Source: a virus (lineage: Duplodnaviria; Caudoviricetes). From it: 48,272 nucleotides of DNA. Location: the IMG/VR virus record IMGVR_UViG_3300021082_000036, positions 1-48,272 of that record, one strand, 5' to 3'. The notes beneath the pieces were generated by a model that saw only the letters and a program-made list of their open reading frames with translations, was not told where the DNA came from and ran no database searches. The stretch's first letter is position 1; each line of letters opens with the position of its first letter. Shown piece after piece: positions 6,236 to 29,800 of this stretch. A program made the position numbers and the translations under genes.

Positions 6236-7303
6236 CTACGCGCAGTAGACGTACACAGTTCCGGAGAGCGCGGCTCCCGAGGACTGCTTGATCGTCCATG
6301 CGTTCGTGCCCGTCGGTGCGCCTGCCGCGTTCGAGCGGTAGGAGGCAGTGACCGATCCCTGGATGTCGAAGCCACCCGAGATCGCCTGCTTGCCAGCCGG
6401 ACAGGTGACGGTGAACTGCTTCTCTCCCGTCGCCGTGCCGCCCGTGACCGTCTCCAGGGATCCGATGTCCCCGGTATCACCCTTCGGGCCAGCAGGGCCT
6501 GCCGGGCCAGCGGGACCCGCGGGACCAGCCGGGCCAGTGGCTCCAGAGTCGCCCTTCGGCCCCGCGGGACCTGTTGCACCAGCAGGGCCAGCCGCACCAG
6601 CCGCGCCAGTGTCACCCTTCGGGCCTGCGGGACCAGCGGCCCCGGTAGCGCCCGTCTCACCCTTCGCACCAGCAGGGCCAGTGGCACCGACGGCTCCTGC
6701 CGCTCCGGTGTCGCCCTTCGGGCCAGCCGGGCCGACGGCACCCGCCGCTCCGGTGTCGCCCTTGGCACCAGCGGGACCCGTAGCGCCTGTCGCGCCCGTG
6801 TCGCCCTTGGCACCAGTGGCTCCCGTCTCGCCCTTGGCTCCGGTCGCTCCAACAGCACCAGTAGCTCCGGTTTCACCCTTCGCTCCCGCTGCTCCCGTCG
6901 CTCCCGTCTCGCCCTTCGGGCCTACTGCGCCAGCGGCCCCAGTTGCTCCGATAGCACCCGTCGCACCCGCCACGCCCTGGGCACCCGCAGAGCCGTTGGC
7001 CCCCTTCTCGCCCTGAGGGCCTGCCGGACCCCTCGGCCCCGAGACGGCTACTCCGTCGCGGCGGTTCTCCCAGGGACGGCACTTCTCGTCCTTCGACACC
7101 GAGCGAACCACTCCCGCCCGGAGGATCGAGAGCCGAAGCTCGGGAGACGTCGTCTGCTGACCACGCTGCACGGGCTGCAAGAAGCGCTTGCCGATGCAGA
7201 AAGGCCCGGCGAGTCGACGCCCCTGGTCGCTTGTCGCCGCGGTCGTCGATCCGACCATGATGACCGCACAGAGCGCGGCCAGGAACACGTACCACTTCTT
7301 CAT
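6236..7303 (-). CDS. secreted collagen-like protein
   Basis: Signal peptide [22 protein letters not shown]; long uninterrupted Gly-X-Y run; C-terminal [11 protein letters not shown]...VYCA domain. Confidence 0.85.
6466..7041 (-). repeat. Gly-X-Y collagen repeat tract
   Basis: Repeated [11 protein letters not shown] / GAKGETGAT units. Confidence 0.9.
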
Positions 7304-7339
7304 CTTCCCCTCCTCGTTGGGTACTTCATTGTGCGCTCT

Positions 7340-7813
7340 TCACAGGCTCGTCATCTCCCCGCAGACGTAGCCTCGATAGCGAAGGCGCAGGGTACGGTCA
7401 GCCCGGATTCGGCGCTGACCATCTTGATCGCGCAGCCCCTCGACATCAAGGTTGGCGCGAACGAACTCGTCCTCGGTGAGCGAGAGGTTCGCTCTCGCCA
7501 CAGGCCGCGGGATGCCGCCGTAGATCACGTAGTGCTGACCGATCACGGGCCGCTGATCGGGCTTCAAGGCGCGAAGCTCGCGAAGCTCGACCGAATCCGG
7601 CGGCAGTGAGGGGTCGACGACCACCGGAAGCCCGAATGCCTCCTCCTCGGGCCAATCTCCCGGCTCAATCGGCGGCTCGTCGGCCAGAATCGGCGCGAGA
7701 GCCGGGATTTCGGCCACCAGAGCCTCGGATTCGGCCTCTGAGAGCGGTCCGGGGTCGTTGGAGGGGTCATCGAGGCCCGGATAGCCCTCGATCAGGCTGT
7801 CGAACTCGCTCAT
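7340..7813 (-). CDS. hypothetical protein with acidic Pro-rich N-terminus
   Basis: ATG at 7813 overlaps the stop of the upstream small gene. Confidence 0.55.
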   Translation of the reverse strand: MSEFDSLIEGYPGLDDPSNDPGPLSEAESEALVAEIPALAPILADEPPIEPGDWPEEEAFGLPVVVDPSLPPDSVELRELRALKPDQRPVIGQHYVIYGGIPRPVARANLSLTEDEFVRANLDVEGLRDQDGQRRIRADRTLRLRYRGYVCGEMTSL

Positions 7814-7932
7814 CGGGGCGTGATCCGGCCCAGAGCATGCTTGACGAGGCCCCGAACCCACTCGGCTGGGTCTTTCCCGGCCTCACGGAGCTTCTTCTCG
7901 TCGTCCTTGTTGACGTACACGGAGATCTTCAT
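7810..7932 (-). CDS. small ribbon-helix-helix-like DNA-binding protein
   Basis: MKISVYVNKDDEKKLREAGKDPAEWVRGLVKHAL: alternating beta-strand followed by two helices; divergent from 7982. Confidence 0.45.
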   Translation of the reverse strand: MKISVYVNKDDEKKLREAGKDPAEWVRGLVKHALGRITPR

Positions 7933-7981
7933 TCCAGTAGCATACAGGTGTTTGGTACCCCACGTACACGGAGGGATGAGA

Positions 7982-8410
7982 ATGGCTCGACAGCCGAAGA
8001 AGGAGGCGGTGAGGGAGATCGAAGGGATCCCCGGCACGGTCACGCACGGCTTCAAGGAGCAGCCGATCATCGAGCAGAAGATGCCCGAGAACGTGAGACG
8101 GGCCTTCGAGGAGAACCGGATAGACCCCTCCTCGCTCTCGATCTTCACGATGGGGCCATGCTCGATCTTCGTCGGCCTCGAACCCGCCGCGGTGGACGGC
8201 TCACACCTCTGGCACCTGACGATCTCCTGCCCCTCGCGCCACCCAACCTGGGACGAGATCAAGGTCGCTCGCTACCGCCTCGTCCCGCACCACGTCTGCA
8301 TGGCGATGCTGCTGCCACCGCCCGAGTTCTACGTCAACGTGCCCGAGCAAGACCACGTCTTCCAGCTGTGGGAAGTCACCGACCCCAGGCAGCCATGGAC
8401 AACTGGCTAG
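7982..8410 (+). CDS. conserved phage hypothetical protein (H.S.S...R.PTWDE...H...LWE type)
   Basis: Motif WHLTISCPSRHPTWDEIK...LLPPPEFYVNV...HVFQLWE; ACACGGAGG RBS. Confidence 0.7.
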   Translation: MARQPKKEAVREIEGIPGTVTHGFKEQPIIEQKMPENVRRAFEENRIDPSSLSIFTMGPCSIFVGLEPAAVDGSHLWHLTISCPSRHPTWDEIKVARYRLVPHHVCMAMLLPPPEFYVNVPEQDHVFQLWEVTDPRQPWTTG

Positions 8411-8496
8411 CCGACGGTGTCGATCCCGAAGCAGAAGATCAAGATCAAGGCCGCTGCGATCAGCGCCAACATCACGTCCTGAAAGGTGAGGTTCAC
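8407..8496 (-). CDS. 29-aa hydrophobic peptide
   Basis: GGAGG SD 9 nt before GTG; MNLTFQDVMLALIAAALILIFCFGIDTVG; exactly fills the gap between two plus-strand genes. Confidence 0.4.
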   Translation of the reverse strand: MNLTFQDVMLALIAAALILIFCFGIDTVG

Positions 8497-8497
8497 G

Positions 8498-8755
8498 ATG
8501 ACATCCCTCCATCTCGTAGGTGAAGATGACCTTACCCCGATGCCCGGCTGTCCACTCCTCTGTCGCCTCGGCCTGCACAAGTGGGAGGCCCTGAACGAAC
8601 ACGTCCAGCGGATAGAAGACGGCGTCTGGTTCGACCGCACCTGGAACCGCTGCAGCCGCGAAGGCTGCCCCAAGTCGGAGTGGTGGCGCTGCTACGACGT
8701 CGAGAAGTCACGCTGGCAGATGCCGTACGAGGACCCGGTCGAGCGGCACCTCTAG
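8498..8755 (+). CDS. hypothetical protein (LCRLGLHKW...C..C type)
   Basis: Cys/His motif typical of small phage proteins; GAGG SD. Confidence 0.55.
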   Translation: MTSLHLVGEDDLTPMPGCPLLCRLGLHKWEALNEHVQRIEDGVWFDRTWNRCSREGCPKSEWWRCYDVEKSRWQMPYEDPVERHL

Positions 8756-9094
8756 AGAGAGGACCCCGACCCTGTCGCGCCTTACCCCGTAGGGAGCTAC
8801 TCCCGATCCGCAGGCCCTCTCAGAGAGGACCCTACCGAACGGATGTGCGGCAGGGGGCAGGATCTGCAGATTCGTAGCTGGCGCTGGGGTGAGGCCCCCG
8901 AGCCAGGACCCGCGCACTCACCCGAGCGCGGGGGAAGCCCTCCCCCCGGCCCTAGCTAAGAGCTAGGGCTGGGCATGCGTGTGGGCAAGGCCTATCCCTT
9001 GGATAGTCCTTGCCTTACTGCCCCTCGTTCCTTGGCCCCTCACTGCGTAGCAGTGGCTGGGGAGGGTGGACAGTGGTGCTGCTGTCCTTGACCC

Positions 9095-9829
9095 TCAGCC
9101 CGTAGGGCTGAAGATGGAGCGCAGCTGCCGCCAGGTGGCCTGCTCCGCACCCTCTCTAGAGAGGGTCAGCGTGGCCTCCTCCTGCTGCAGTGGGTCGACG
9201 GAGTCGACGAGCGCCAGCACAGCGCGGGTCTGGCTCAAGCCTTCGGCTTGGAGAGCGCCAGCCACAGCCGCCTCAGCCAGATCCTCAGCCCGTAGGGCTA
9301 CCACTGCCTTCAGTGCCTTTCGGGGGGATAGACGAGGCTTTGCCTCTGTGTCGGGGTCCGAGGCAAGGGAGGCCAGCCCCTCGTCGGTCAGCGCCAGGTG
9401 CGAGTGGAAGACGCACACTTCCAGTCCCCGCATTCGGCCTACCCGGCAGCGCCGACCGTGGACCGTCATTGCCCTGCACCGCTTCTCCTCTGGGATCACA
9501 AGGCTTACAGCCTTGGTCCGGTGGACGTTCCCATCCTCGTCTTCGACGACCACAGGCTGCTTTGCAGCCTGCTTCCTGGCCCTGGCAGCGTTGCCGTTTC
9601 GGCGGTCCACCTCTCGCACCGGATCGGCGAGCAGTTCTACGCGCTGATCCCCCACCAAGAGGGACTGGGATACCACTTCGGACTGGGTAACCACTCCTTC
9701 GGAGTGACTGGGGTCGGTGAGTGGTGCAAGGGGTACAGCTTCGCTGAGGGATTCTGCAGCCCTTTCCGGGCGCGTCAGGGCTTCGCCCTGTGCGTCACTC
9801 ACGTAGCGGAAGCGTGGCGATCCCATCAC
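9095..9829 (-). CDS. putative terminase small subunit-like / Zn-finger protein (start uncertain)
   Basis: CRAMTVHGRRC...CVFH motif of the kind seen in actinophage TerS-like proteins; first gene of the minus-strand block leading to terL. Confidence 0.4.
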   Translation of the reverse strand: MMGSPRFRYVSDAQGEALTRPERAAESLSEAVPLAPLTDPSHSEGVVTQSEVVSQSLLVGDQRVELLADPVREVDRRNGNAARARKQAAKQPVVVEDEDGNVHRTKAVSLVIPEEKRCRAMTVHGRRCRVGRMRGLEVCVFHSHLALTDEGLASLASDPDTEAKPRLSPRKALKAVVALRAEDLAEAAVAGALQAEGLSQTRAVLALVDSVDPLQQEEATLTLSREGAEQATWRQLRSIFSPTG

Positions 9830-9893
9830 CTGATCCTACATGCTCGGAGCCGCCAACGCTACCCGCAAACCCGCATACCTGGGCCGTTTCACG

Positions 9894-10366
9894 GCCTCTA
9901 CGCGCCTTCGGATCTTCGATCCGGGCTGTTAGCATTCTGTTCGGATCACTGGACAGCTGCCCAATCCGTCAGCTAGGTTCGAAGCGGTTCGCCGATCCTG
10001 TCCCGGTTCGAACGGGGTAGCAGGGTAGGTGGCAAGCGGTTCCGCCGAGGGATGATCCCCGAAGGCCGATCCCGAGCCTCAATGTGACCCAGATGGACGA
10101 GGGAGACACGGACAGTTCCGCCTGGATCTCCCCTGCAGCGTCGGGAAGCCGAACAGATGCTGGGAAGGGGGATGTACCGAAGGTAAAGAGCCGCGTCGAG
10201 CCGGGAGGGAAAGCCTCCACGTCCACACAAACACACCCAACAGCATGCGACACCATTGGTGTTACCGCGCCGTTGGAGCTTCGGCTTTGGCTTTCTGCCG
10301 TCCGATGCTCCTCCGCCGCGGTGACGCCCACGGTGCCGAAGGCACTGGTGCATCACCACACGGAGG
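9894..10366 (+). ncRNA. structured non-coding element, copy A
   Basis: Collinear with 14151-14611, with 1-2 nt indels and compensatory stem changes; G-U pairs favour the + strand. Confidence 0.6.
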
Positions 10367-10373
10367 AGGCAGC

Positions 10374-10583
10374 ATGAAGAAAGCAGCGAAGCTCGGGACC
10401 CCCGTAGGGGGTCAGGAAGGCCGGATCCGGTGTGACCTTCGTGGTCACTTCAACGGCACACCCCGACCGAAGGTCGTCGGGGTCAGCGAGCAGGTTGCCT
10501 TGGCAACCCGCTACATGGAGCGGGACGCAGCGAAGGCCCTTCGGGCCTGGAAGCGGACTCTCCCGAAGGGAGTGAGGATCTAG
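10374..10583 (+). CDS. early hypothetical protein
   Basis: ACACGGAGG RBS at 10358. Confidence 0.65.
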   Translation: MKKAAKLGTPVGGQEGRIRCDLRGHFNGTPRPKVVGVSEQVALATRYMERDAAKALRAWKRTLPKGVRI

Positions 10584-10801
10584 TGGAAGCGGTCTACCTG
10601 ACCGTAGGTCAGATCGAGACGCTCTACCGCTTGTCGAAGACAAGCCAGATCGGGATGGAGCTTCGCTCCACAGTCTCCGATCAGTCGGTGGCTCACGTCG
10701 TCTCCGTCCTGAAGGACGGTTCGATGGGCTGGTCAGCCGTCCTCCCCGACGGCACAGGCCCGAACCTCTCTCCGAGAGGTCGACCGCTCTGGGAACGCTG
10801 A
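10583..10801 (+). CDS. early hypothetical protein
   Basis: Start overlaps the upstream stop; GAGG SD. Confidence 0.55.
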   Translation: MEAVYLTVGQIETLYRLSKTSQIGMELRSTVSDQSVAHVVSVLKDGSMGWSAVLPDGTGPNLSPRGRPLWER

Positions 10802-10881
10802 TCACGTAGTGATTCGGTGTGGCTCGTCACGGAGCCTCGCCGAATCCCTTCGGGAAGCGAAGGGCAACACGGAGGTACACG

Positions 10882-11310
10882 ATGGGCTGGAGCGATGCTC
10901 TGCAGGATGCAGAGCGTGAGATGTGGAACGAGATCGCCGTCAACGACGGCGGAGCAAGGGTGACCAGCACCTACGGTGCTGTCGAGACGAACGGCCTGGA
11001 CGATCACGTCAAGGCCCTTCGGGATGCCGTTCACAACGGCAGCGGCGAGATCGTAGATCTCGGAGACAAGCGGCTCGGACGCATCACCAGGCTTCGCCTG
11101 GTCACCGACCGGGACGTCCCATTCTGGGACTTCAGCTACTGCTACGGGACGCTGAAGGACGGCTCTGCCGTCCGGGTTCGGCTTCCCCTGTCGCAGTTCC
11201 CCAAGCAGGGCCTCAACCAGTCCCTGGTTGAGATGTGCCGCTCGGTCGGCGCGTTCGGCAAGGGTCTTGGGATCTTCGATCCCGAGGTCATCTCGAAGCT
11301 CTACGGATAG
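10882..11310 (+). CDS. early hypothetical protein
   Basis: ACACGGAGG RBS at 10867. Confidence 0.75.
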   Translation: MGWSDALQDAEREMWNEIAVNDGGARVTSTYGAVETNGLDDHVKALRDAVHNGSGEIVDLGDKRLGRITRLRLVTDRDVPFWDFSYCYGTLKDGSAVRVRLPLSQFPKQGLNQSLVEMCRSVGAFGKGLGIFDPEVISKLYG

Positions 11311-11370
11311 GGTCGATGGGGCCTCTAGAGGCCCTGTCGTTCCGTTCCGTTGGAACGGTGTACACGGAGG
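11305..11370 (+). repeat. two-hairpin leader module, copy 1
   Basis: GGATAGGGTCGATGG-hairpin-GTTCCGTTCC GTT GGAACGG-ACACGGAGG; also at 11804 and 12778. Confidence 0.8.
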
Positions 11371-11375
11371 TCAGC

Positions 11376-11798
11376 ATGAGCAACTACATGAGGCTGGACA
11401 CCGCAGAGCGGTGCCACTGTGGGGCGCACAAGCAGGGCAGTGACCACTGCCCTGAGTGTGGCTGCGAGGAGTTCGAGAGTCGCTGTGACCATGTCCACGT
11501 AGTGGACCCCACCTTCGTGGTGATTCACGGCAACCACACCTCGACGAAGTCGGTCGTCGACTACGTGGCCCACATCGTCTACGGATGCCCTCGCATCGAG
11601 GCTGTCCTGGTCGGGAGCCACTTCGTGGCTCTGGTCGAGTTCCCTGCCAGCCAGGCAACTCAAGCTCGAACTACGTTCGAGAGGATGGGCAGCTTCCCGC
11701 ACGGAGCCTGCATGGCGATGGACAAGGCTATCGCCTTGAGGGAGTTCGGCAGCTGGATCTACCACTACGCCCCCGGCACAGTCGTTGGAAACGACTGA
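11376..11798 (+). CDS. early hypothetical protein with N-terminal Zn ribbon
   Basis: CHCG...CPECGC motif; ACACGGAGG RBS. Confidence 0.7.
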   Translation: MSNYMRLDTAERCHCGAHKQGSDHCPECGCEEFESRCDHVHVVDPTFVVIHGNHTSTKSVVDYVAHIVYGCPRIEAVLVGSHFVALVEFPASQATQARTTFERMGSFPHGACMAMDKAIALREFGSWIYHYAPGTVVGND

Positions 11799-11803
11799 CC
11801 AGC

Positions 11804-11873
11804 GGACAGGGTCGGTGGGGCTTCGAGGAGCCTCGCCGTTCCATTCCGGTGGAATGGATGTACAACACGGAGG
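11804..11873 (+). repeat. two-hairpin leader module, copy 2
   Basis: GGACAGGGTCGGTGG...GCCGTTCCATTCC GGT GGAATGG...ACACGGAGG; compensatory G-C to A-T change in hairpin 2. Confidence 0.8.
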
Positions 11874-11881
11874 TGTCAAGC

Positions 11882-12655
11882 ATGGACATCATTCGCTTTC
11901 AGCGAATGGCTGAGGCTGGTGGCGTCGAGTACGACCTCGAAGAGGTCTACGGCGGCGAGATCCGTGGTCTACTGACCACGAACCAGAAGGTCGAGAAGGG
12001 TGAGAAGCAGGGATGGCTTACAGCCATCATGCACCTGGCCCCGGCGAAAGCCTCTGGCTTTCAGGTCTGCTCCTCGGCGACCAAGGGCTGCGAAGCAGCC
12101 TGCCTCAACACGGCGGGTCGTGGCGGGATCTTCACCAAGGGTGAAGTCGACAACGCCATCCAGAGGAAGCGCCGTCTTCGGACGGCGTGGTACTTCGCCA
12201 GGAGGAACGAGTTCCTCCTGCAGCTGGATGCCGAGATCGGCACCCACAAGCGGAGAGCAGCGCGGAAAGGCTTCCAGCCTGCCGTGCGGCTCAACGGGAC
12301 CAGCGACATCCGCTGGGAGTCGGTGAGGATCGATGGTCAGACGCTCTTCGAGCGTCACCCCGACGTCGTCTTCTACGACTACACCAAGCACAGCGACCGG
12401 GATGTCTCTGACATCCCGAACTACTCGCTGACGTTCTCGCTGGCCGAGAACAACGACAGCAAGGCTGTCGAGGCCCTCTCGAACGGGCTGAACGTGGCGG
12501 CGGTGTTCCACACCGTCCCCGAGACGTTCATGGGTCTTCCCGTCTTCGACGGGGATGCCTCGGACCTGAGGTTCCTCGACCCCTCTGGGGTCATCGTCGG
12601 CCTCAAGGCGAAGGGCAAGGCCCGGCAGGATCGCAGCAGCGGGTTCGTGAGGTGA
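11882..12655 (+). CDS. GP88-like protein (radical-SAM-related Cys motif)
   Basis: LAPA...C..AT.GC...CLN.AGRG, VRLNGTSDI.W, FYDYTK and Y.LTFS motifs. Confidence 0.75.
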   Translation: MDIIRFQRMAEAGGVEYDLEEVYGGEIRGLLTTNQKVEKGEKQGWLTAIMHLAPAKASGFQVCSSATKGCEAACLNTAGRGGIFTKGEVDNAIQRKRRLRTAWYFARRNEFLLQLDAEIGTHKRRAARKGFQPAVRLNGTSDIRWESVRIDGQTLFERHPDVVFYDYTKHSDRDVSDIPNYSLTFSLAENNDSKAVEALSNGLNVAAVFHTVPETFMGLPVFDGDASDLRFLDPSGVIVGLKAKGKARQDRSSGFVR

Positions 12656-12783
12656 GCGTCATCATCCAGATAGCGGTCATTCTGACCGTGATCTTCGCCA
12701 CTCCCCTCTTCGCTCCCTGGTGGCTGATTCTGCTCGTCTGGTGGATGGCCCTCTGGGCCATGCCGGACCTCAACGGCGGATAG
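12652..12783 (+). CDS. small Trp-rich membrane protein
   Basis: MSVIIQIAVILTVIFATPLFAPWWLILLVWWMALWAMPDLNGG; GTGA overlap with the upstream stop. Confidence 0.55.
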   Translation: MSVIIQIAVILTVIFATPLFAPWWLILLVWWMALWAMPDLNGG

Positions 12784-12842
12784 GGTCGGTGGCAGCCTCT
12801 GGCTGCTGCCGTTCCGTTCCGGTGGAACGGTTGACACGGAGG
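12778..12842 (+). repeat. two-hairpin leader module, copy 3
   Basis: GGATAGGGTCGGTGG...GCCGTTCCGTTCC GGT GGAACGG..ACACGGAGG. Confidence 0.8.
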
Positions 12843-12847
12843 TCGAC

Positions 12848-13306
12848 ATGCACTTCATGAACACCTGGGACATCGAGCGCTGCGTGGCGGTCTACGACCG
12901 ACACCCGATCCTCGGCCCAGCGTCGAAGACGCTGCTCAATCTGGAGCGGTGGACGAATCAGAACAGCGACGGTTGGGCCTATTGGCCCAAGCCCGTCCGG
13001 GCCGCGAAGAAGCTCATGGAGCTTCTGGAGCGGGACTACCGCTACGGCGAAGCCGAGGTGACCGAGGCGGAGTACAAGGCCGCTTTGCGGCCTATCAAGG
13101 CCTTCAGGACCCGACAGGGTGCTGACTTCGTCATCGAGGTGCCAGTCTCGGAGAGACTGGAGGAGCTTCGCAAGGTGATCCGCTCGGAGAGCATCTCCTG
13201 GGGAGAGCTTGCCGAGCTTCAGGGCCTCGCCCATCACATCTCCGATGGAGATGTCGAGCTTCTCGAATGGGCCGGGGTCGCCGAAGGCGAAAGACCGCTT
13301 GGCTGA
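12848..13306 (+). CDS. early hypothetical protein (actinophage-type N.NSDGW.YW.KP.RAA..L motif)
   Basis: Motif-like core; ACACGGAGG RBS. Confidence 0.75.
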   Translation: MHFMNTWDIERCVAVYDRHPILGPASKTLLNLERWTNQNSDGWAYWPKPVRAAKKLMELLERDYRYGEAEVTEAEYKAALRPIKAFRTRQGADFVIEVPVSERLEELRKVIRSESISWGELAELQGLAHHISDGDVELLEWAGVAEGERPLG

Positions 13307-13361
13307 GGTCACGGTGGGACCATTCGGTCCCGCCGCCTCTTCACCCAACACGGAGGGCAAC

Positions 13362-13685
13362 ATGCACGAAGGAGTGGTCGAAGACGGCACGATCTCGCGC
13401 TGTGGGATCTGCGGCTGTCAGGTTCACATGCTCGACCCGCTGGAGATGGACTGGATCTGCGATCCATGCTCCCTCGACGGCTGGTCGGGGTTCAAGTCGG
13501 CGTGGCGGCTTCGCCGCGGCGACATCATCCACCGTCGGGGCGAGAGCTTCACGGTGATGATGGAAGAGGCCTTCGGCCTCAAGGTTCTGCTCACCCTCCG
13601 GGGTGAGAAGGGTCAGGTCTTCGACCTGATGCTGAGGGCGACCGACAAGGTGTACATCCACCTTGACCGGGACGACTCGGTCTGA
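13362..13685 (+). CDS. early hypothetical protein with Zn ribbon
   Basis: CGICG...CDPC; ACACGGAGG RBS. Confidence 0.65.
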   Translation: MHEGVVEDGTISRCGICGCQVHMLDPLEMDWICDPCSLDGWSGFKSAWRLRRGDIIHRRGESFTVMMEEAFGLKVLLTLRGEKGQVFDLMLRATDKVYIHLDRDDSV

Positions 13686-13762
13686 CCTACGGTCAGTGAC
13701 GGTGGGGCCATGAGGCCCTGCCGTGTCTGCACCCGCAGGCAGTTCAACACGGAGGTACGCGC

Positions 13763-14149
13763 ATGAGCAAGGGCTTCGAGAGAGGCATGAGAGTCTTCAT
13801 CGAAGACTCTCGGGGTGGTCACTTCGGCATCGTCCAGGGGACCCTCCGGAGCGGACTGATCTCAGTCCGCTGGGACTCGGGAGCGTTCGAGCGCTGCACA
13901 CCCGAGGAACTGACGATCCAGTTCACCATCTCTGATGGTGAGGAGGAGCAGCTGACCCCGACGGGCCACGTCATCGGTGCCGAGTACTACTCGGCCTACT
14001 GGGGCGGTGCCTACAAGGTGATCGGTCCGAATGGACCGTACGGCGTCGAGGTCGAATGCACCGTCCCCGGTGGCGGAGCGCACCAGACCGAGGGTGAGCG
14101 CTGGACGCACATGACCACGCTCGACCCCAAGGATGTACGCATCGGCTAG
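13763..14149 (+). CDS. early hypothetical protein
   Basis: ACACGGAGG RBS at 13747. Confidence 0.7.
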   Translation: MSKGFERGMRVFIEDSRGGHFGIVQGTLRSGLISVRWDSGAFERCTPEELTIQFTISDGEEEQLTPTGHVIGAEYYSAYWGGAYKVIGPNGPYGVEVECTVPGGGAHQTEGERWTHMTTLDPKDVRIG

Positions 14150-14150
14150 A

Positions 14151-14611
14151 GCCTCACACGCACGTTCGGAGCGAAGCTCCGGGCTGTAAGGAGTTTGTTC
14201 GGATGACTGGACAGTAGCCCAACTCGACAGCTACTTCTAGAGGGCAGCGCCGAATCGTCCCGGTTCCGACGGGGTAGCGATGAGGTGGCAGCGGTTCCGG
14301 CCCTGGATGATCCCAGAAGCCTGATCCCGCAGCCTTGATGTCTGCCGCAGCGAGGGAGTCACGGTCAGCAGCGCCGACCTGCCTTCCCCCGAGCCATGGC
14401 ACAGATGCGATGCCGACAGCCGCCGTAGGGCGGAACGAAGCTGGAGGTGCTAGGCGGAGATCAGGGGAGGCAGCGAAGCAACGTCGTGACGAGCCGCCAG
14501 GGAGAGCCTGGGCGCTGCCACTACACACTCAAACATGCGACACCATCGGTGGGGTCCTTCGGGACCTCGCCCACGGTGCCGATACACGGTTCCGTTCACG
14601 ACACACGGAGG
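14151..14611 (+). ncRNA. structured non-coding element, copy B
   Basis: Fills the whole intergenic gap; homologous to 9894-10366. Confidence 0.6.
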
Positions 14612-14621
14612 TGTCACACGT

Positions 14622-15053
14622 ATGCCCAAGTTCAAGGTCGAGGTGAGCTTCAACCTCGGAACGACCATCGAGCCTGAGGTCAGCCGTCACCACTGGGACA
14701 CCAGCGGGACGAGCGAGTTCTCGGACGACAGCTACTTCCAGAGCGAGGAGGTCACCTCCTCGGGCGGTAGCCTCACGTTCGAGATCGAGGACGACGGCTT
14801 CGAGGACGAGGACGACGTCAAGTCATGGGTCGAGTCGAACGTCATTGCCGATGGCAATGAGGTGCAGGACGACAACGACCTGACCTGGATCGTCGAGGAC
14901 CTCGACATCGAGGTCGAGAAGCTGGAGATGAGCATCGAGGAGGCGGCAACGCTCCTTCGGAGCTTCCTCGACAGCCGCGAGCCTGCGTTCTTCGAGGCTC
15001 ACCCGACGGTGGCAGAGGCGCTCGACGTCCTGCTCAAGCATCACGACGCATAG
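14622..15053 (+). CDS. highly acidic hypothetical protein
   Basis: Asp/Glu-rich sequence; ACACGGAGG RBS. Confidence 0.75.
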   Translation: MPKFKVEVSFNLGTTIEPEVSRHHWDTSGTSEFSDDSYFQSEEVTSSGGSLTFEIEDDGFEDEDDVKSWVESNVIADGNEVQDDNDLTWIVEDLDIEVEKLEMSIEEAATLLRSFLDSREPAFFEAHPTVAEALDVLLKHHDA

Positions 15054-15140
15054 CCGTCCGACAGCGGGTGGGGGAGCTTGCTCCCCTCGCCCGGTGCGGT
15101 ACGTCTGGCACCATCACGACGACACGGAGGTGTCACGCAT

Positions 15141-15563
15141 ATGAGTCTCAACTGGTCGCTCGCCGACATCGAGAACTGGGACGAGGTCTGCCACATCGTG
15201 GCGACCGTGGACTGGCCGATGGACGGCACGAAGAAGGGTGACAAGCTGCTCAACCCGGTCACGACCGCGCTGATCTGGCACAGCCTGAACACGGGCATCG
15301 GTCGGATCAAGGCGGAGAACGCGGCTGAGGTCTTCGCCCGGATCTCCCTGGTCGAGGAGCTTTACGGCTCCTCGCTGCGGAGCGGTGACGGCAAGGATCG
15401 TCGGATCACGATGGACGACGTCGCCGCCCACGTTGGTCTGTCGACCAACGCATCGTTCAAGGACGAGTCCCGCGCCAGCTTCATGAAGCGCCACGTCACG
15501 TCCAAGCTCGACGGCAAGGCGAAGGCGTACGAGCGGTACGCCAAGCAGGAGGTCCCGGCCTGA
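15141..15563 (+). CDS. hypothetical protein
   Basis: ACACGGAGG RBS at 15122; typical codon usage. Confidence 0.75.
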   Translation: MSLNWSLADIENWDEVCHIVATVDWPMDGTKKGDKLLNPVTTALIWHSLNTGIGRIKAENAAEVFARISLVEELYGSSLRSGDGKDRRITMDDVAAHVGLSTNASFKDESRASFMKRHVTSKLDGKAKAYERYAKQEVPA

Positions 15564-15772
15564 TGCCGCGGGACTACACCGACGCCGTTCGCCGGGTCGA
15601 CGCCGACATCCTGTCGGCTCGCTCGACGGACGAGATCGTCGCCCGGATCCCGGCCAAGCACCTGTACGACGCGCTGTGCGTGTTCCTGCTCGACGAGGAG
15701 CTTCGCCCGGTGCTGGAGATCCTCTCTCCGAAGGCTGTCGAGCAAGCTCGACACGCTCTGCTGCTCACGTAG
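15563..15772 (+). CDS. hypothetical protein
   Basis: TGATG overlap; AGGAGG SD. Confidence 0.6.
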   Translation: MPRDYTDAVRRVDADILSARSTDEIVARIPAKHLYDALCVFLLDEELRPVLEILSPKAVEQARHALLLT

Positions 15773-15783
15773 CGTCCGGCAGT

Positions 15784-15823
15784 GGGTGTGGACAGTAGCA
15801 CTTGTGCTACACTGTCCATGCCC
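15784..15823. promoter_or_regulatory. nested inverted repeat (candidate operator/promoter) upstream of the HTH gene
   Basis: GGGTGTGGACAGTAGCAC TT GTGCTACACTGTCCATGCCC; contains a TG-TACACT -10-like hexamer. Confidence 0.5.
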
Positions 15824-15858
15824 AGTGCGGATGTCCGCGCTGTAACCGAGAGGAAAGG

Positions 15859-16074
15859 ATGGCAGCACGACCGATCAGCAAGACCCGGTTCGCGGAGGCG
15901 GTCCAAGACCGCCTGCTCGACACGCATCAGGTGATGGAGATGCTCGGCGTACGTAGCCGGACGACCATCGCCAACATGGTCGCAGCTGGGACTCTCCCGG
16001 CTCCGATTCTCAAGGTGGAGAGGGTGTACTCCCTCTGGGATCGCCTCGCCATCGAATCGCACACACGGAGGTAA
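15859..16074 (+). CDS. AlpA/excisionase-like HTH DNA-binding protein
   Basis: LLDTHQVMEMLGVRSRTTIANMVAAGTLPAP...W pattern. Confidence 0.75.
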   Translation: MAARPISKTRFAEAVQDRLLDTHQVMEMLGVRSRTTIANMVAAGTLPAPILKVERVYSLWDRLAIESHTRR

Positions 16075-16079
16075 CACAG

Positions 16080-17180
16080 GTGACTCGCACAGTCGAGAAC
16101 CTCGACGCGCTGATGTCGAGGATCGTGGCGGAAGACCGCCGCAAGTACGACGTGATCGCCGACACCCGCAGCATGAACGTGGGCGTCCGCGTGAACGAGG
16201 ACGGCAAGGGTGGTGTGGTCGAACTCGACCTCGACACCGAGGGCAGCGAGCTTCGCTCGTTCCGCCTGACCGACCACATGCAGGGCCAGATCTCGACCGA
16301 TCTGGGCATCCCGAAGAAGTACTTCGACCGGATGCGTCAGGACGCCCCGTCTCTGTTCGAGACGAACGTCCGCCACTGGATGAACAACGAGCCGAAGGCT
16401 CGCATGATCCGTGGCCTCACCAACGACGGCGGTCAGATGATGACGGGCCGGGCGTGGATGAGCGACAAGTTCCGCCGCCTCGACAACATCGAGGTCGCAC
16501 GGATGCTCCTCCCCGAGTTCGACAAGCTCGGCACCGAGGTGCAGTTCCACCAGGCCGCGGTCACGGAGCAGAAGCTCCACATCCGCGCCCTGTTCCCCGC
16601 TCTTGAGCGGGACATCAAGGCGGTCGGTGACACCGTCCGCTGGGGCATCGCCATCGAGAACTCCGAGATCGGCGCTGGCTCGCTGAAGCTCTCGGGCTTC
16701 GTGATGGTGCTGATCTGCACCAACGGCATGGTCACGAACAAGGTGCTGAACGTGCGCCACGTCGGCAAGCGTGAGGGCGAGGGCGTCCTCTCGAACGAGG
16801 CCCTCCGGGCCGACGACAAGGCCTTCTGGCTCGCGGCTCGGGACGAGCTTCGCGCCCTCTGCACCGAGGCCGCGTTCGAGACGGTCGTCGCCCAGCTGAA
16901 GGGCCTCTCGGACACCGAGGTCATCAGCCCGGTGGCTGCGACGAAGGTGCTGGCTCGGGAGTTCGCGCTCACCGAGGCCGAGGAGGAGGCAGTCATGCTC
17001 TCCCTCGTCAAGGACCCCAACGGGGTCGGTCGTGGTCAGTGGGGCGCGATCAACGCCTTCACGGCAGCGGCCAAGACGGCGGAGGGGTTCGACCGCCAGG
17101 CCGAGATCGAGGCCATCGGTTGGGGCCTCGCTCAGATGCCCGAGAAGACGTGGGAGAAGGTCGCCCTGGCGGTCAAGTAG
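16080..17180 (+). CDS. DUF932-like protein
   Basis: RA.MSDKFRRLDN, I.NSEIG.GSL, L.CTNGM and WGAINAFT motifs. Confidence 0.7.
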   Translation: MTRTVENLDALMSRIVAEDRRKYDVIADTRSMNVGVRVNEDGKGGVVELDLDTEGSELRSFRLTDHMQGQISTDLGIPKKYFDRMRQDAPSLFETNVRHWMNNEPKARMIRGLTNDGGQMMTGRAWMSDKFRRLDNIEVARMLLPEFDKLGTEVQFHQAAVTEQKLHIRALFPALERDIKAVGDTVRWGIAIENSEIGAGSLKLSGFVMVLICTNGMVTNKVLNVRHVGKREGEGVLSNEALRADDKAFWLAARDELRALCTEAAFETVVAQLKGLSDTEVISPVAATKVLAREFALTEAEEEAVMLSLVKDPNGVGRGQWGAINAFTAAAKTAEGFDRQAEIEAIGWGLAQMPEKTWEKVALAVK

Positions 17181-17336
17181 ATGGCTGCCAAGCCGAAGGC
17201 TGGCTACTCCTGTGCCCGGTGCGGACGCCGGGTACGGGAGGGCCAGTACCTGTACTCACGGTTCACGAAGAACCGCTACTGCATCAAGCTCGACGAATGC
17301 GCCAGGCGAGTGGCGAACAAGGCGAAGCGGAAGTAG
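17181..17336 (+). CDS. small basic Zn-finger protein
   Basis: MAAKPKAGYSCARCGRR...YCIKLDEC; ATG immediately follows the upstream stop. Confidence 0.55.
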   Translation: MAAKPKAGYSCARCGRRVREGQYLYSRFTKNRYCIKLDECARRVANKAKRK

Positions 17337-17417
17337 CGGGTCGAGGCTCTCTCAGGGGGAGCCTCGGTCCGGTGCTGCTGGTTCTGCACCACGCACGAAG
17401 ACACGGAGGTGTCACCT

Positions 17418-17603
17418 ATGGCCGAAGCAACGGTCACAGTCAAGCTCAGTACGACCGAGTTCAAGCTGGTCGAGCAGGCTCTGCGGAGCCTGATCCAGGT
17501 CCACAAGGAGATCGTCGCTGACCTGTCCGAGCATGCCTCAGAGAGGCAGAAGGCTCGCAAGGTGGTCGACGAGGCCGGGGGCTTGCTCGGTCGGCTGGCG
17601 TGA
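17418..17603 (+). CDS. hypothetical protein
   Basis: ACACGGAGG RBS at 17401. Confidence 0.65.
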   Translation: MAEATVTVKLSTTEFKLVEQALRSLIQVHKEIVADLSEHASERQKARKVVDEAGGLLGRLA

Positions 17604-17800
17604 CGAAGATCCTCGCGGTGACCCAGAAGCAGGAGTCCCCGCAGACCGTCTCCCTCGAACTGAGGGAGAGCGTTGCCAACCTGCTGGTCGGCTACGTCGA
17701 GATCACCCTCGTCCCCAACGGGGCGAGGATCGAGGCCTGGAACGCAGACGACTCGCCCGTCGAGGGCGGTGGCGTCGTTCAGGCGGAGCGTCCGTCGTGA
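17600..17800 (+). CDS. hypothetical protein
   Basis: GTGA overlap with the upstream gene. Confidence 0.55.
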   Translation: MTKILAVTQKQESPQTVSLELRESVANLLVGYVEITLVPNGARIEAWNADDSPVEGGGVVQAERPS

Positions 17801-17928
17801 AGCTCGAAGACGTCACGACCAAGCTCGTAGACGTGCTGGCGTTCGTGTTCGTCCTGCTGCTCCTCGTCGGGCTGATCGGCGGCGTGATCGCTGCCGTGGT
17901 CTGGGGCATCGTGGCGGTGGCTTCGTGA
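17797..17928 (+). CDS. small membrane protein
   Basis: Long hydrophobic stretch; GTGA overlaps at both ends. Confidence 0.55.
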   Translation: MKLEDVTTKLVDVLAFVFVLLLLVGLIGGVIAAVVWGIVAVAS

Positions 17929-18116
17929 AGTACCGGGCCATCATCCGCGACGAGAAGACGGGCGAGTGTACGTGGTTCGTCTACGTCGAGAGCGGCTTCG
18001 GCACGGTCTACGCCTGCCGCTTCGGCACCCGCGATCACGCCGAGCGAGTGGCGGCGGCGATGAACCGTGCCTGGACAGCAGAGGGTCGGCTCTACGAGCC
18101 GAAGCTCGATGACTGA
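17925..18116 (+). CDS. hypothetical protein
   Basis: GTGA overlap; coupled operon. Confidence 0.55.
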   Translation: MKYRAIIRDEKTGECTWFVYVESGFGTVYACRFGTRDHAERVAAAMNRAWTAEGRLYEPKLDD

Positions 18117-18558
18117 CGCGACCTGCATCCATGAGGCTAGCCACGCAGCTGTCGCCCTCCGCCTGGGCCTGACCGTACGTCGGGTCCAGGTCGGAGGGTG
18201 GTGCCGGGTCCCCCGTTACTGTGCCCAGCTGTATCCGGGCCTGGTGGCGGGGGTCCCGATCCGCTCGGCGATCACGCTCCTCGAAGAGGACTGCCTCGAC
18301 CACTCCACGGTCGAGGTGCTGATCGCGATGGCTGCCCCGATGTTCGTCGTCACCGACGACTCGAAGATCAACACCTACGCCTGGCTGGAGGCGAAGCTCG
18401 CCACCCGCTACGCGAAGAACAAGACGAAGCTCCGCCCCGACCTGATCCTCAGCCGGGCGAAGTCCCTCGCCGCTGTCTGCGAGCCTCGGATCTACGAGAT
18501 CGCGGAGCGGCTCGAACAGGAGAGGAGGATCGATGACCTGCAGCTGCCTTGCGTGTAG
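18109..18558 (+). CDS. putative zinc metallopeptidase (HExxH)
   Basis: N-terminal CIHEASHAAVALRLG, as in M41-like standalone peptidases. Confidence 0.55.
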   Translation: MTDATCIHEASHAAVALRLGLTVRRVQVGGWCRVPRYCAQLYPGLVAGVPIRSAITLLEEDCLDHSTVEVLIAMAAPMFVVTDDSKINTYAWLEAKLATRYAKNKTKLRPDLILSRAKSLAAVCEPRIYEIAERLEQERRIDDLQLPCV

Positions 18559-25994: not shown

Positions 25995-26867
25995 CTAGAG
26001 CGTCCGGTCGAGGTGGAGGTGCGGGGCGGCGTGGTTCGCAGAGATGCGTGACAGCGTCTGCCCCGCCCTCACCCTCGTACCAGCAGGCAGCGAGTAGCGC
26101 CCGTCGATGTGGCCGAGCCACCATGTGTGGCCCTCGTCGTCGCGGAAGTACATCGACTGCCCACCCTGCGCCGACCCGAGCCTGACGACTACGCCGTCAC
26201 GGGGAGCGGGGACGGCGGTGCCCGGCTTCGCCATGATGTCGACCGCCGTCTTCGCCCCGTGGTTGAGGTCGAGGCCGTCGGTGACGTGGGTGCCGTGGCC
26301 CGTCCAGGCGTTGACGTTGACCGACCCCTTCGGCAGCGCCACGTTCCCTCCTCCGCCGCCGGGGAACCCGGAGAAGTCGAGCGCTGGCATCTTGCGGTAG
26401 GCGTTCGGCCCGATCCCCCATGCTCCGAAGTCCTTGCCACCCTTGCTCATTGCATAGGCCACCCTTGCATTCGTCTCCGGGTTGAGCAGGTCCTTGTACG
26501 AGGACAGCCCGTACTGCTTCAGCCGCGCAGGCCCGAGCTTGCCGAGCATGTTGATCTGGAAGAGGCCGTAGCTGTCGTCGCCCGTCGAGCGGTCGGGGTT
26601 GTAGGCATCAGCCCTGCCTCCGCTCTCCCGCTTGGCGATGGCCCAGGCCGTCTTCAGCGCCTGCCCCTTGAAGCCAGCCTGCTGCAGGGTGTGGACGAGC
26701 GGGTCGCCGACCCCGCCCGGTACGGAGGTGGAGCCGAAGCTCGGCGGTGGCGTCAGCCCGAGGTCGAAGTCCGGTGGGTCGGAAAGATCAAGGAAAGATC
26801 TTTCCGTCTTCTTTCCCTGGTCGAGCAGCAGGTCGGCTGCGCTCAGGGTGGGGAGCTTGAAGGCCAT
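25995..26867 (-). CDS. virion-associated peptidoglycan hydrolase (SLT transglycosylase plus M23 peptidase)
   Basis: AIAKRESGG...SYGLFQIN (SLT); AVDI...G..V.AP.DG.V, LGH and PHLH (M23). Confidence 0.85.
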   Translation of the reverse strand: MAFKLPTLSAADLLLDQGKKTERSFLDLSDPPDFDLGLTPPPSFGSTSVPGGVGDPLVHTLQQAGFKGQALKTAWAIAKRESGGRADAYNPDRSTGDDSYGLFQINMLGKLGPARLKQYGLSSYKDLLNPETNARVAYAMSKGGKDFGAWGIGPNAYRKMPALDFSGFPGGGGGNVALPKGSVNVNAWTGHGTHVTDGLDLNHGAKTAVDIMAKPGTAVPAPRDGVVVRLGSAQGGQSMYFRDDEGHTWWLGHIDGRYSLPAGTRVRAGQTLSRISANHAAPHLHLDRTL

Positions 26868-29800
26868 CAGCCTGGAGCGTAGGGGTCAGCGCTCGGCGAG
26901 TTGTCCACCGGAGCGTAGGGATCCTCGCCTCCCGCCGGGCCAGAGTCAGGCGCGTAGGGATCGTCGTCGCCTCCGCCGCCACCTCCGCCTGTCGACTTCG
27001 GCTTCTTCGCCCCGTAGCTAGAGAAGCCGATCCCGAAGGTGCCGAAGAAGAGCGCCACGGCTGCAGCTGTGGCTGCGTCGACCGGATCCTTCGGCTCGCG
27101 CCAGACGTCGAGAACGTCACGCAGCATCATCGGCGCGGTCGAGTTGATCGCCTCGCCCTTGAGCGTGACAGGCTCACCGATGAAGGTCTGCCCCCGCAGG
27201 ACATCGAGGCCGATGCCCGTCGTCGGCGCAGCCTTCGACTCCAAGAAGCGGTAGACGATGTCGAGCCGGGACGAGTTGCCGAAGCCACCCTTCAGGTCCT
27301 GCGTCTTGCCTGTCGTCGAGGAGGTCGAGCGCCCGACCGTCAGCCGGGTGAAGAAGACGAGCAGTGGGCCGAACCCCGCCATGATGTCGATCCGGGTGTC
27401 GCCGATCCGGATCTTGCCGAAGTTCGCCGACGTCGGATCCATGCCCACCGTCACGCCCGGCATCTGCGCGGCGACCGCGAGGACCATCCCCGTCGCGAGG
27501 GCGGTGGACATCAGGTTCTTCGTCGCCTCAGCGAAGAGGAACGGGTCGCTCTGGTAGAGCTTGATGTAGTAGGCGGGGCTGATCATGTTGATCCGCGAGG
27601 CGAGTAGCCGCGGCGAGAAGAGGAACGTGTTCAGCAGCGGGGCCGACGTCTCGACCCTGAGCAGATGCGTCTCGGGCAGGACTCCACGACCAGTCATCTG
27701 GTTGACCATCCGGCCAAGGCCCTCGACGAACTCGTCGCTCTCGACGTTGACGCCCTTCGCCCTCGCTGCCTCCATCGTGAGGTCGAAGACGTCCGCTCGC
27801 AGCCTGTGCAGGAACGCCTCGTAGGCACGGCCCGACCACTTCACGGGCGGGATGAACTGCTCCGCGTAGGAGGAGTAGAACTGCTCCTCGCGCATGGCGA
27901 GGTCGGGGCTTGAGGCCGACGTCTCGATGGCGAGCTTGCCGCGCCCGTAGTGGACGAAGTTCTCCCGGTTGGCGATCTCCTCGGCGATGTCGGCTGCCCT
28001 CTCCTCGGAGGAGAGCGCCTTGAACATCGGCTTGAAGGCCTTCGCGAACAGGATCGGGTGCCGGGTGCCTGCGATCAGGCCCTGGCGCAGCGGGGCGGAG
28101 AGGTCGAACGAGGCGGCGATGGAGCGAGGGATGTTCCAGACCTCGACGATCACCTTCTCGATCCCCTTCAGGGTCTGCTTGCGGAAGCCAGCGTCCTTGC
28201 CGAAGACCCTGTTCAGGAGCAGAAGCTCGCTGTCGGTCGGCACCGCTCCCTCGGTGGCTCGGATCACCGCCTCCGCCGCCCGGACCTTCTCGAAGGGGCG
28301 GACCTTGGTCGAGAACCTGATCGACTTGATCAGCGAGGCGACGGCCTCCGGGGTCAGGTCGTCGAGGCCCGTGTACTCCTCCTTGGGAAGCTCGCCCTTC
28401 AGGGCCGAGAGCGCCGAGTGGAACTCGTCCACCCCTTCCTCCCCCGTCCACTCGTCGAACATCTGAGCGATCCGCTTCCCCCGCTCCGCCGAGTAGCCAG
28501 CCTTCTGGGCCTTGCGGATCTTCGGCGCTGTCTTCAGCAGCCGCACCAGCTGCTCGGCGGGAGTCTCGTTCTTGACGAGCATCCGGTCGAAGACCTGCTT
28601 CACCTCGGGGTGGACGTGAGCGCCGATGTTGTTGACGTGCAGGTAGACCTGCCCCATCCAGGCCTTGATCTTGGCGAAGACGCCGTCGAGTTCGGAGGTC
28701 GCCGCCATCCCGTCGTAGACGTAGCGCTCCAGCGCCCTGGCGTAGGCCTCATGGTCGGCGGTCGTGGCGAAGTTGCCGAAGTGGCGGTTGAGGATCGCCC
28801 GGTCGACGTCGTTCAGGTCGGGGAGGACGACGTGGGAAAGCTCATGGATCACGGTCGAGACGTCCGCCCCCTCGAAGAGGTGGATCGCGCTCGTCCCGTC
28901 GGCGAAGAACTCGGACGCCCCCTTCGGGATCGCCTCCCAGGCTCGCTGCTGGTAGTAGGCCATCGGCGCTGCCACCTTCGCCTTGGCGGCGTCGGTCATC
29001 TCGATCACGTAGCCGTCCATCGCATGGACAGCTGGTCCCACCGGGCCAGCGTTCGGGTCGGGCACGATCACATGGACGTAGTGGGCAGGCTTGACGACCA
29101 TCCGCCGCCCGATCTCGACGCCGATCTCGCCGTTCGCGTACGCGGCCTGCACGATCCCCGGCCCCTCGACCGTCATCACCCTGTCGCCGCGCTTCGGCTC
29201 GGGGAAGGTCGGATCCTCCATGTACCTGACCCCGTCGATGACGAAGTCGTCCTGCGGTGGCTGGCGGCTGAAGGCCCGGCCCTCGTCGGCGTAGCCGCCG
29301 TGGAAGATCCCCTGCTTGACCGCCCCCGTCTCGCCCATCTCCTTCTCGAAGATCTTCTGCACCTTGCCAGCCTCGTTGCCCTGGCCGTAGAGATCCATGA
29401 ACCCCTTCACCATCCCCTCGCGGTGAGCGGGGTCGTTGGCGTAGGCCTGGATCTCGGCCTGGCTCATCCCGGCGGCGTCGTCCCGCAGCTTGGCGACGTC
29501 GTTCTGCCAGTTCGGGTTGTCGTGGATCTGGATCGCCCGGCCCTTCGGGGTCACCCGGTAGGCCTGGTTGCGGATCGCCTGGACATCCCCCTGGACGATG
29601 ATGATCCGCTCGACCCCCGACTCCTGCGCGAAGCGGAGGGTGCGCTTGACGAGCGCCTCCATCTGCTTGGAGCCGAGCGGCGGAGGGCCGGGGACGTTGT
29701 CGCTCAGGTCCCTGAGGTCGTTCAGCTGGTCGCGGTTGGTGCGGTAGAGGTCTTCGAGGTCGGCGATCTCGGCGGCGTAGCGGCTCGGATCCTGCTCCAT

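Follow-up and report, generated by a model that had tools for sequence, protein, structure and literature searches.

The window considered here is the whole assembled genome (48,272 bases, 65% guanine plus cytosine (GC)) of a virus of the Caudoviricetes, IMG/VR record IMGVR_UViG_3300021082_000036. Where its first plus-strand operon is predicted to begin, between positions 8940 and 14200, lies a dense field of small perfect inverted repeats, here called hairpins, whose arms differ in sequence from one to the next and which in most cases enclose a three-nucleotide loop of the form GNA or its complement, TNC. If a hairpin is defined as a perfect inverted repeat with a 3-nt loop and a stem of at least 5 bp (the definition used throughout unless another stem is stated), the field contains 82, compared with 7.4 ± 2.8 expected from first-order Markov resamples (n = 200, maximum 15). 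The field recurs in three related genomes, in which it appears to be kept as structure and not as sequence.

Extent and anatomy of the hairpin field

The left edge of the field is the gap between two convergent genes, at 8486-8755 (plus strand) and 9098-9829 (minus strand). Three perfect hairpins lie there, within 8949..9055: GCCCTAGCT-AAG-AGCTAGGGC at 8949, CTATCC-CTT-GGATAG at 8992 and CACTGC-GTA-GCAGTG at 9041. All persist in the relatives with longer or changed stems, their loops being AAG, CTT, AGG or CCT. The minus-strand gene (9098..9829) encodes a protein of 244 amino acids with a Cys/His motif, carries about ten hairpins and has 65-69% amino acid identity over its full length in the three relatives, the contigs L001, L002 and L003. 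It is followed by a spacer (9882..9923) situated between predicted divergent promoters and holding two conserved hairpins, GGCCGT-TTC-ACGGCC and CGGATC-TTC-GATCCG, which in the relatives show the paired changes GGTCGT/ACGACC and CGGAGC/GCTCCG; given the predicted promoter positions, this DNA would not be transcribed. Module R1 (9938..10374, plus strand) comprises the promoter-like sequence TGGACA-18 nt-TAGGTT and a conserved leader of approximately 390 nt that ends in ACGGAGG-ATG. It opens the predicted first rightward operon (10375..14149, plus strand), in which eight open reading frames (ORFs) are found at 10375-10583, 10583-10801, 10819-11310, 11376-11798, 11885-12655 (a member of the GP88 family, PF17338), 12848-13306, 13359-13685 and 13763-14149, and 64 triloop hairpins between 10375 and 14200. 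The right edge (14167..14625, plus strand) consists of the hairpin CGGAGC-GAA-GCTCCG and then module R2 (14196-14625), a second copy of the promoter-plus-leader module of about 440 bp with a weaker promoter match than R1. Behind R2 the density of hairpins drops approximately five-fold, leaving a weak tail (14626..18500, plus strand) with 8-11 hairpins per 2 kb, mostly with 5-bp stems and mixed loops. Since the field is limited on the left by the gap shared with a convergent plus-strand gene and on the right by R2, it corresponds to the two predicted units that diverge from R1.

The full window contains 189 hairpins. Bins of 2 kb hold 18, 33 and 33 of them at 8-10, 10-12 and 12-14 kb, and 0-9 outside 8-20 kb. 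For stems of at least 6 bp the field has 64 against 1.8 expected from the Markov resamples, and for stems of at least 7 bp 38 against 0.5, while the remaining 38,172 nt are at chance (82 against 65, 22 against 18.2 and 4 against 4.8 for stems of at least 5, 6 and 7 bp, respectively); perfect hairpins of the last class occur at about 7 per kb in the field and 0.1 per kb elsewhere in the genome. The initial annotation had made its case depend on an excess over both the rest of the genome and synonymous-codon shuffles, and the second comparison supports it as well. Seven field ORFs (3288 nt) contain 41 hairpins with stems of at least 6 bp, compared with 3.3 ± 1.7 after synonymous shuffling (maximum 9 in 300 shuffles) and 1.1 after codon shuffling, indicating that the palindromes bend both the choice of codons and the amino acid sequence. 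In the same kind of comparison, nine plus-strand ORFs at 15-26 kb have 8 against 3.5. A further 22 perfect repeats in the field have 4-nt loops, a type that is two to three times enriched, so that the field totals about 100 short perfect palindromes over approximately 5.2 kb; by arithmetic, the triloop hairpins alone occupy some 1,300 of its 5,261 bases.

All 24 hairpins quoted in the initial annotation are present at the positions it gave, and its impression that the pattern fades is confirmed by the density (stem of at least 6 bp), which falls from 12.2 per kb between 9938 and 14196 to 2.5 per kb over the following 4 kb and to 0.7 per kb farther on, with L003 behaving alike. Its estimate of one hairpin every 100-150 bp was too sparse, the mean spacing in the field being 64 nt and the median 52; 11 of the 81 gaps exceed 100 nt, and the largest, of 340 nt, falls within the leader. 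A regular spacing was considered and rejected, as the coefficient of variation (0.75) resembles that of random placement with a hard-core exclusion of about 16 nt. Intrinsic terminators, sought as a GC-rich hairpin with a T/U run, number 4 in 7200-16200, compared with 3.7 in shuffles.

The stems in the field measure 5-10 bp (5-7 bp in 69 of the 82), are unrelated in sequence and share only what adjoins the loop. On the 5′ side the loop is closed by C in 63 of the 82, against 25 of the 82 hairpins outside the field, and 50 of the 82 have GNA or TNC loops, in agreement with the shared loop centre first noticed. When hairpins of the GNA/TNC type are co-oriented (n = 52), information is limited to C-G-N-A-G and is close to zero beyond the closing pair, which is C·G in 40. 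The middle base is A in 28, T in 14, G in 8 and C in 2, giving an A or T at the loop centre in 42; such a centre would ease the opening of a cruciform. In the rightward units of the four genomes, the window and its three relatives, the choice of loop is strict: GAA forms 47 loops and GAG none, TTC 50 and CTC none, GTA 14 and GTG 1, TAC 21 and CAC 1. GAG, CTC, GTG and CAC are the commoner words in the same DNA, yet they are avoided as loops. The loop coincides with an in-frame codon in 33 of 55 hairpins, and rare codons are recruited for the purpose: three of the four GTA and five of the seven TCT codons in field genes are loops, as against none of 61 GAG, 52 GTC, 45 GAC or 45 GGC codons.

Hairpins with a single mismatch are about two times enriched (33 in approximately 22.6 kb of the four fields, 53 in approximately 82 kb). 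These 33 (8 G·T, 4 A·C and 21 other mismatches) compare with 196 perfect hairpins (stem of at least 6 bp) in the rightward units alone. The palindromes with 4-nt loops display no preference for GNRA or UUCG. The plus strand carries GNA as well as TNC loops in every zone, without overall strand bias. Up to 1 kb to the right of R1 in the four genomes it has 29 GNA and 10 TNC loops, to the left of R1 15 GNA against 22 TNC plus 5 TNT, and from 1 to 3 kb to the right 31 GNA against 53 TNC plus 24 TNT. This is suggestive of a lean of GNA towards the sense strand on both sides close to R1, in a comparison that was made post hoc and among related genomes.

The leaders of R1 and R2 are of a different nature. 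A consensus fold predicted for them, drawn also from L001, L002 and L003, has invariant G·U pairs, 5-nt loops and long-range pairs, with covariation at 18 of its 67 predicted pairs, and could represent a cis-acting regulatory or antitermination RNA. It matches no known RNA family, Rfam 15 giving a single match at chance level (E = 0.32) in 8500-16500. This predicted fold is an internal example of what structure selected as RNA looks like in these genomes.

Conservation in relatives and likeness to known systems

The three relatives are uncultured contigs with 71, 59 and 57% amino acid identity to the window in one field protein, and all have the field in the same place with the same loops. Scans of viral contigs with TerL and with the leftward protein, and a metagenome scan, returned the same three long contigs and, apart from these, short fragments. 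Conservation of place was scored on the 70 window hairpins (stem of at least 6 bp) that lie within the alignment. Of those that could be aligned with each relative, 42 of 60, 38 of 51 and 33 of 52 have a hairpin at the corresponding position, whereas the shifted controls averaged 6.2, 4.8 and 3.7. Stems are kept by paired change, as in CCAGGC/GCCTGG against CAAGGC/GCCTTG, or in the series GAGATC-GTA-GATCTC, GAGGTC-GTA-GACCTC and GAGGTT-GTC-AACCTC, and loops flip to their complement on an unchanged stem, as with TTC/TAC/GAA at 9699. Within the window itself, the two homologous hairpins at 9909 and 14167 differ by a paired change in the stem and by a flip between TTC and GAA, so the initial annotation had rightly described their loops as lying on opposite strands. 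Third codon positions vary less inside hairpins than outside in the GP88-family gene (21 of 74 against 93 of 182, p = 0.0009) and in a gene of 163 amino acids (23 of 55 against 50 of 88, p = 0.09). These results bear out the expectation that relatives would share the field and show compensatory changes in its stems. There is also turnover, since each relative has lost 13-19 hairpins and ORFs found only in the window also bear them. Taken together, the comparison indicates that the field is kept as structure and not as sequence.

Nor does the field appear to travel with its genes. The GP88-family gene (11885-12655) has 13 hairpins, but the genomes of three phages with a homologue, a T7-like Mesorhizobium phage, Roseobacter phage CRP-6 and mycobacteriophage Bactobuster, have no field, and the gene was rejected as its marker or cause. 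NoShow and Rizwana, which encode homologues of two other field genes, are equally without one. Of these five field-free controls three have at least 60% GC and all have many small non-structural genes. On this evidence the field belongs to the place and not to the genes. Compared with outgroups, residues under hairpins are less conserved (36%) than those elsewhere (46%), and two family-conserved sites are altered exactly at loops, with Phe (TTC) replacing Ile and Ser (TCT) replacing Arg. The GP88 family itself is widespread and functionally unassigned, and a tblastn search places it in 268 phage records. Among them are cluster-A-type mycobacteriophages, where it lies towards the right end, and Pelagibacter, Roseobacter and Caulobacter phages; it is gene 02 in the T7-like Mesorhizobium phage, and in those examples lies near one genome end.

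The closest parallel in geometry is coliphage N4. Its record shows no field but has three such hairpins, GTTGC-TTC-GCAAC at 96, AAGAAGC-TCC-GCTTCTT at 565 and AAGCTGC-TCC-GCAGCTT at 4554, which immediately precede gp1, gp2 and RNAP1. We take these three to be the known promoters of the virion RNA polymerase, which are extruded by supercoiling. A figure legend in PMC13037366 agrees with this identification. In both systems a 5-7-bp stem closed by C·G carries a 3-nt loop that reads GNA on one strand, and the hairpins stand at the start of the early genes. N4 differs in having three non-coding sites on one strand and a gene for a virion polymerase of 3,500 amino acids, whereas here there are 82 sites on either strand, mostly within ORFs, with no shared flank and no polymerase found. 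The core C-GNA-G is also that of the DNA mini-hairpins d(GCGNAGC) described by Hirao and colleagues (G4 origin, ssiA), N being mostly A in the field (28 of 52). For these, extreme stability, resistance to nucleases and, as a suggestion, poor binding of single-stranded DNA-binding protein (SSB) are given in the accessible part of PMC13037366. In nature they are known as isolated sites, at the origins or promoters of single-stranded replicons, whereas the field is a kilobase array in coding double-stranded DNA in which T is the second commonest middle base.

The mitochondrial palindromes of Nematomorpha, as described in the available portion of PMC6649704, are likewise perfect repeats in working genes, with a preferred codon phase, few imperfect copies and gains and losses between relatives, and have given rise to the same debate over function and conversion. 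They differ in their arms, which reach 284 bp, and in belonging to an animal organelle, and that portion reports neither a fixed loop motif nor a link to transcription units; in the phage field the stems span 5-10 bp, the centre is fixed and the limits are sharp. A cultured analogue is gene 47 of the mycobacteriophage Patience (L034, 38753-39469 of its record), which has 17 hairpins within the gene; a 1-kb bin there holds 18 in an otherwise bare 50 kb. Patience can be propagated on M. smegmatis mc2 155, a laboratory strain. Gene 47 resembles the field in its density of triloop hairpins, and its product was found by mass spectrometry in the early sample only, according to the accessible text of PMC4324244. 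It differs in that a single gene is involved, in that the coding strand carries GAA in 16 of the 17, and in having no homology to the window proteins. The same text ascribes the 62% GC of gene 47 to lateral transfer, and the terms 'inverted repeat' and 'stem-loop' have no occurrence in it (PMC4324244). The 62% GC 'island' of Patience coincides with the GC-rich stems of the gene 47 hairpins.

REP (repetitive extragenic palindromic) and other palindromic repeat families place many small hairpin palindromes in a genome, with a shared family sequence and between genes. The field also has many palindromes, but its stems are unrelated and mostly inside genes, and a family of the REP type or of the MITE (miniature inverted-repeat transposable element) type was rejected because no stem sequence is shared beyond the closing pair. 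In all, seven named phages were checked for such a field. Full-text searches, which returned mostly listings and abstracts, turned up no account of fields of this kind in the early genes of phages.

A possible role at the DNA level

The array is likely to be a previously undescribed structural signal of the DNA itself. In the specific form preferred here, to which a probability of about 0.3 is assigned, the conserved array would work on both strands by extruding as mini-cruciforms during early transcription. Transcription from the R1 promoters would unwind and negatively supercoil the DNA of the field, in which the palindromes would extrude as paired hairpins. Many small, independent and reversible extrusions, each palindrome of 15-21 bp absorbing some 1.5-2 helical turns, could together form a torsional and single-strand buffer, and this would keep the first operon transcribable, with fewer R-loops and less exposed single strand, before any phage protein is present. 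Arm-to-arm templated correction may help to maintain perfect arms.

Several features look more like DNA than RNA, as the initial annotation had also judged. GAA and TTC are equally strict, and GAG and CTC are never loops. A loop appears to be chosen if either it or its complement is GNA, which implies that both strands matter. According to the available part of PMC13037366, only GNA among all NNN loops gives the mini-hairpin, and TTC loops are ordinary; TTC would then be special only through its complement. The stems avoid wobble pairs, unlike the G·U-bearing leader fold of the same genomes, RNA-type tetraloops (GNRA, UUCG) are unused, and two conserved hairpins lie between the predicted divergent promoters.

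Other observations weigh against a role in DNA. In the rightward units of the four genomes TCT forms 26 loops and AGA only 2, and the mismatch that ends a stem is, on the sense strand, more often G·T (43) than A·C (26) among 196 hairpins (p = 0.053, the genomes not being independent). The R1 and R2 leaders, though predicted to be transcribed, are nearly without hairpins of the field type, and apart from the exclusion of about 16 nt the hairpins are placed at random, without any spacing rule. Field limits that coincide with transcription units suit a role in RNA equally well, and the coding-strand bias of GAA in Patience gene 47 speaks for a role confined to one strand in that phage. There is no field in the T7-like phage, in which the early region is entered by host transcription. 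The promoters and the 'early' status of the operon were read from the sequence only, and a scan for E. coli-type promoters found none. Finally, by our own estimate, the extrusion of cruciforms with arms of 5-9 bp would be costly.

Part of this evidence would be expected if the hairpins acted in RNA, that is, if short-range hairpins formed quickly in the earliest transcripts of the two divergent units and shielded them from Rho loading, RNases or RNA-guided defence, or prevented RNA polymerase backtracking and R-loops. The bounding of the field by predicted transcription units and its stop at the second promoter module, the slight sense-strand excess of G·T at stem ends, the numerical superiority of TCT loops, and Patience gene 47, with its coding-strand GAA and a product that the accessible text of PMC4324244 places in the early sample only, are all in its favour. 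This explanation nevertheless seems rather unlikely. UUC loops are as strict as GAA loops, CUC and GAG never occur as loops, G·U is nearly absent from stems and used in the neighbouring leader fold, stable RNA tetraloops are unused, and two conserved hairpins stand between the predicted promoters. The untranslated leaders, which are the RNA most exposed to Rho, are moreover those without hairpins. We know of no RNA rule that would make UUC and GAA equally strict.

It is similarly doubtful that the hairpins have no function of their own. In such a scheme, transcription-associated template switching would perfect inverted repeats and arm-to-arm conversion would keep their arms identical, so that the most transcribed and least constrained genes would fill with 'selfish' palindromes, among which those with C-GNA-G centres survive best. 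The nearly binary state of the hairpins (one-mismatch forms enriched only about two times, perfect stems of at least 7 bp at about 7 against 0.1 per kb) accords with it, as do the hairpins in genes found only in the window and the lower conservation of hairpin residues against outgroups, and conversion yields paired changes and loop inversions of the kind observed. The same argument has been made for the coding palindromes of Nematomorpha mitochondria (in the available portion of PMC6649704), and in yeast quasi-palindrome mutations have been observed only under high transcription, according to the accessible part of PMC3820800. On the other hand, the five other phages are field-free despite their many small non-structural genes and, in three, a GC content of at least 60%; the field breaks off sharply at R2 even though the genes beyond are just as small; family-conserved residues have been changed into loops, which conversion does not template; and positions are held across 57-71% amino acid identity. 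Conversion may still contribute to the maintenance of the arms.

There is a slighter chance that the field enters the cell first, as a genome end, with stable hairpins guarding unwound or resected strands from nucleases and from the loading of SSB or RecA, or serving as decoys. Mini-hairpins are nuclease-resistant and suggested to bind SSB poorly, as the available part of PMC13037366 has it, the left edge of the field adjoins a non-coding gap of 190 bp, and the field would be packaged last if packaging began there and ran with the late genes. Against this, the assembly has no terminal repeat, the contigs of the relatives continue through 8.8 kb, and the right edge is set by a promoter module and not by distance from an end. 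The initial annotation had linked this idea to a putative terS beside the field, which did not hold: TerL (330-1949) is 7 kb away, and the ORFs at 7820-8410, 8486-8755 and 9098-9829 match no terminase family. Its other premise, a position at the start of the early operon, agrees with where the first plus-strand operon is predicted to begin.

Very improbable is the remaining proposal, that the hairpins are initiation signals, serving either as promoters of the N4 type, a likeness noted at the outset, from which an injected RNA polymerase would start, or as sites where a primase would start on single strands: the N4-like geometry (5-7-bp stem, 3-nt loop, GNA on one strand) and the lean of GNA near R1 to the sense, that is, lagging-template, strand (29 GNA against 10 TNC rightward and 22 TNC against 15 GNA leftward, post hoc and in genomes that are not independent) are set against a lack of RNA polymerase, DNA polymerase or primase families among the 58 ORFs scanned, the want of a conserved flank outside C-GNA-G, the use of both strands at 82 mostly intragenic sites in 5 kb, and the three hairpins, before genes and not in a field, of N4, so that this reading fails three of its four defining features.

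To return to extrusion in DNA, it is conceivable, and put forward tentatively, that such 'hairpin domains' form a general, undescribed class of phage cis-elements, kilobase arrays across the first early operon that would extrude in the first minutes and act as a collective buffer or shield for expression of that operon before phage proteins are made, with the 5-kb array on both strands of this actinophage-like lineage as one example and Patience gene 47 as a cultured one. About a quarter of 5 kb of working genes is doubly constrained, as protein and as perfect palindromes, and this goes so far that rare codons are recruited and family-conserved residues altered. If functional, the field would be a new protein-independent signal at the very onset of infection, during the contest between phage and host defences; if not, a strong conversion force linked to transcription would be shaping viral genes. 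Either outcome bears on the physical behaviour of early phage DNA and on the assembly of metagenomes. For gene annotation, hairpin-dense genes look foreign by their GC content, like Patience gene 47, and for the recoding or synthesis of phage genomes, synonymous changes in such regions may not be neutral. Since Patience is in culture, its gene 47 allows a direct test of the matter.

Host and neighbouring genes

The host is probably a high-GC actinobacterium, judging from composition, from distant homologues in Mycobacterium and Arthrobacter phages and from -10 boxes of the TANNNT type. No near match among deposited phages was found by megablast, and blastn gave just two matches of about 100 nt. 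The public runs that hold the genome, as contigs, are sediment and soil metagenomes, and no RNA run is listed among them. Contigs of four of these runs aligned to the field include fragments of this strain and of a co-occurring relative, and reveal no genome termini. Runs X1, X2 and X4 contain a second, related strain with gene-sized replacements within 8900-14300 (joints at 11306/11921, 11380/13237 and others), indicating that the region is mosaic within one habitat.

The start of the window is arbitrary, since terL and the portal gene are both split by it and no terminal repeat was found in the assembly. TerL is encoded at 330-1949 on the minus strand, as are the portal, capsid and tail proteins, from 48 kb down to 26 kb, and small plus-strand ORFs span approximately 10.4 to 25.8 kb. 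Scans of the 58 ORFs with Pfam and PHROGs found no RNA polymerase family, though a very remote homologue could escape them, and no DNA polymerase or primase family. The leftward gene product matched no family in these collections, and the ESM Atlas gave no hit at 0.9 or above. Within its gene lies a full 18-bp palindrome, ACCCTCT-CTAG-AGAGGGT (9149-9166), and TAGGAT stands 6 nt before its ATG (9826-9840, minus strand), conserved in the window, L001 and L003, which suggests the start of a leaderless transcript. A protein of 1664 amino acids (26867-31861, minus strand) has no Pfam match and a single PHROG match, of unknown function. It contains an HELSH motif, its C-terminal part is hydrophobic and rich in Gly, and its location behind the tail genes would suit an ejected or tape-measure-like protein of the virion. 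An ORF at 6236-7303 (minus strand) has strong matches to tail-fibre PHROGs and lies upstream of terL, away from the main block of tail genes.

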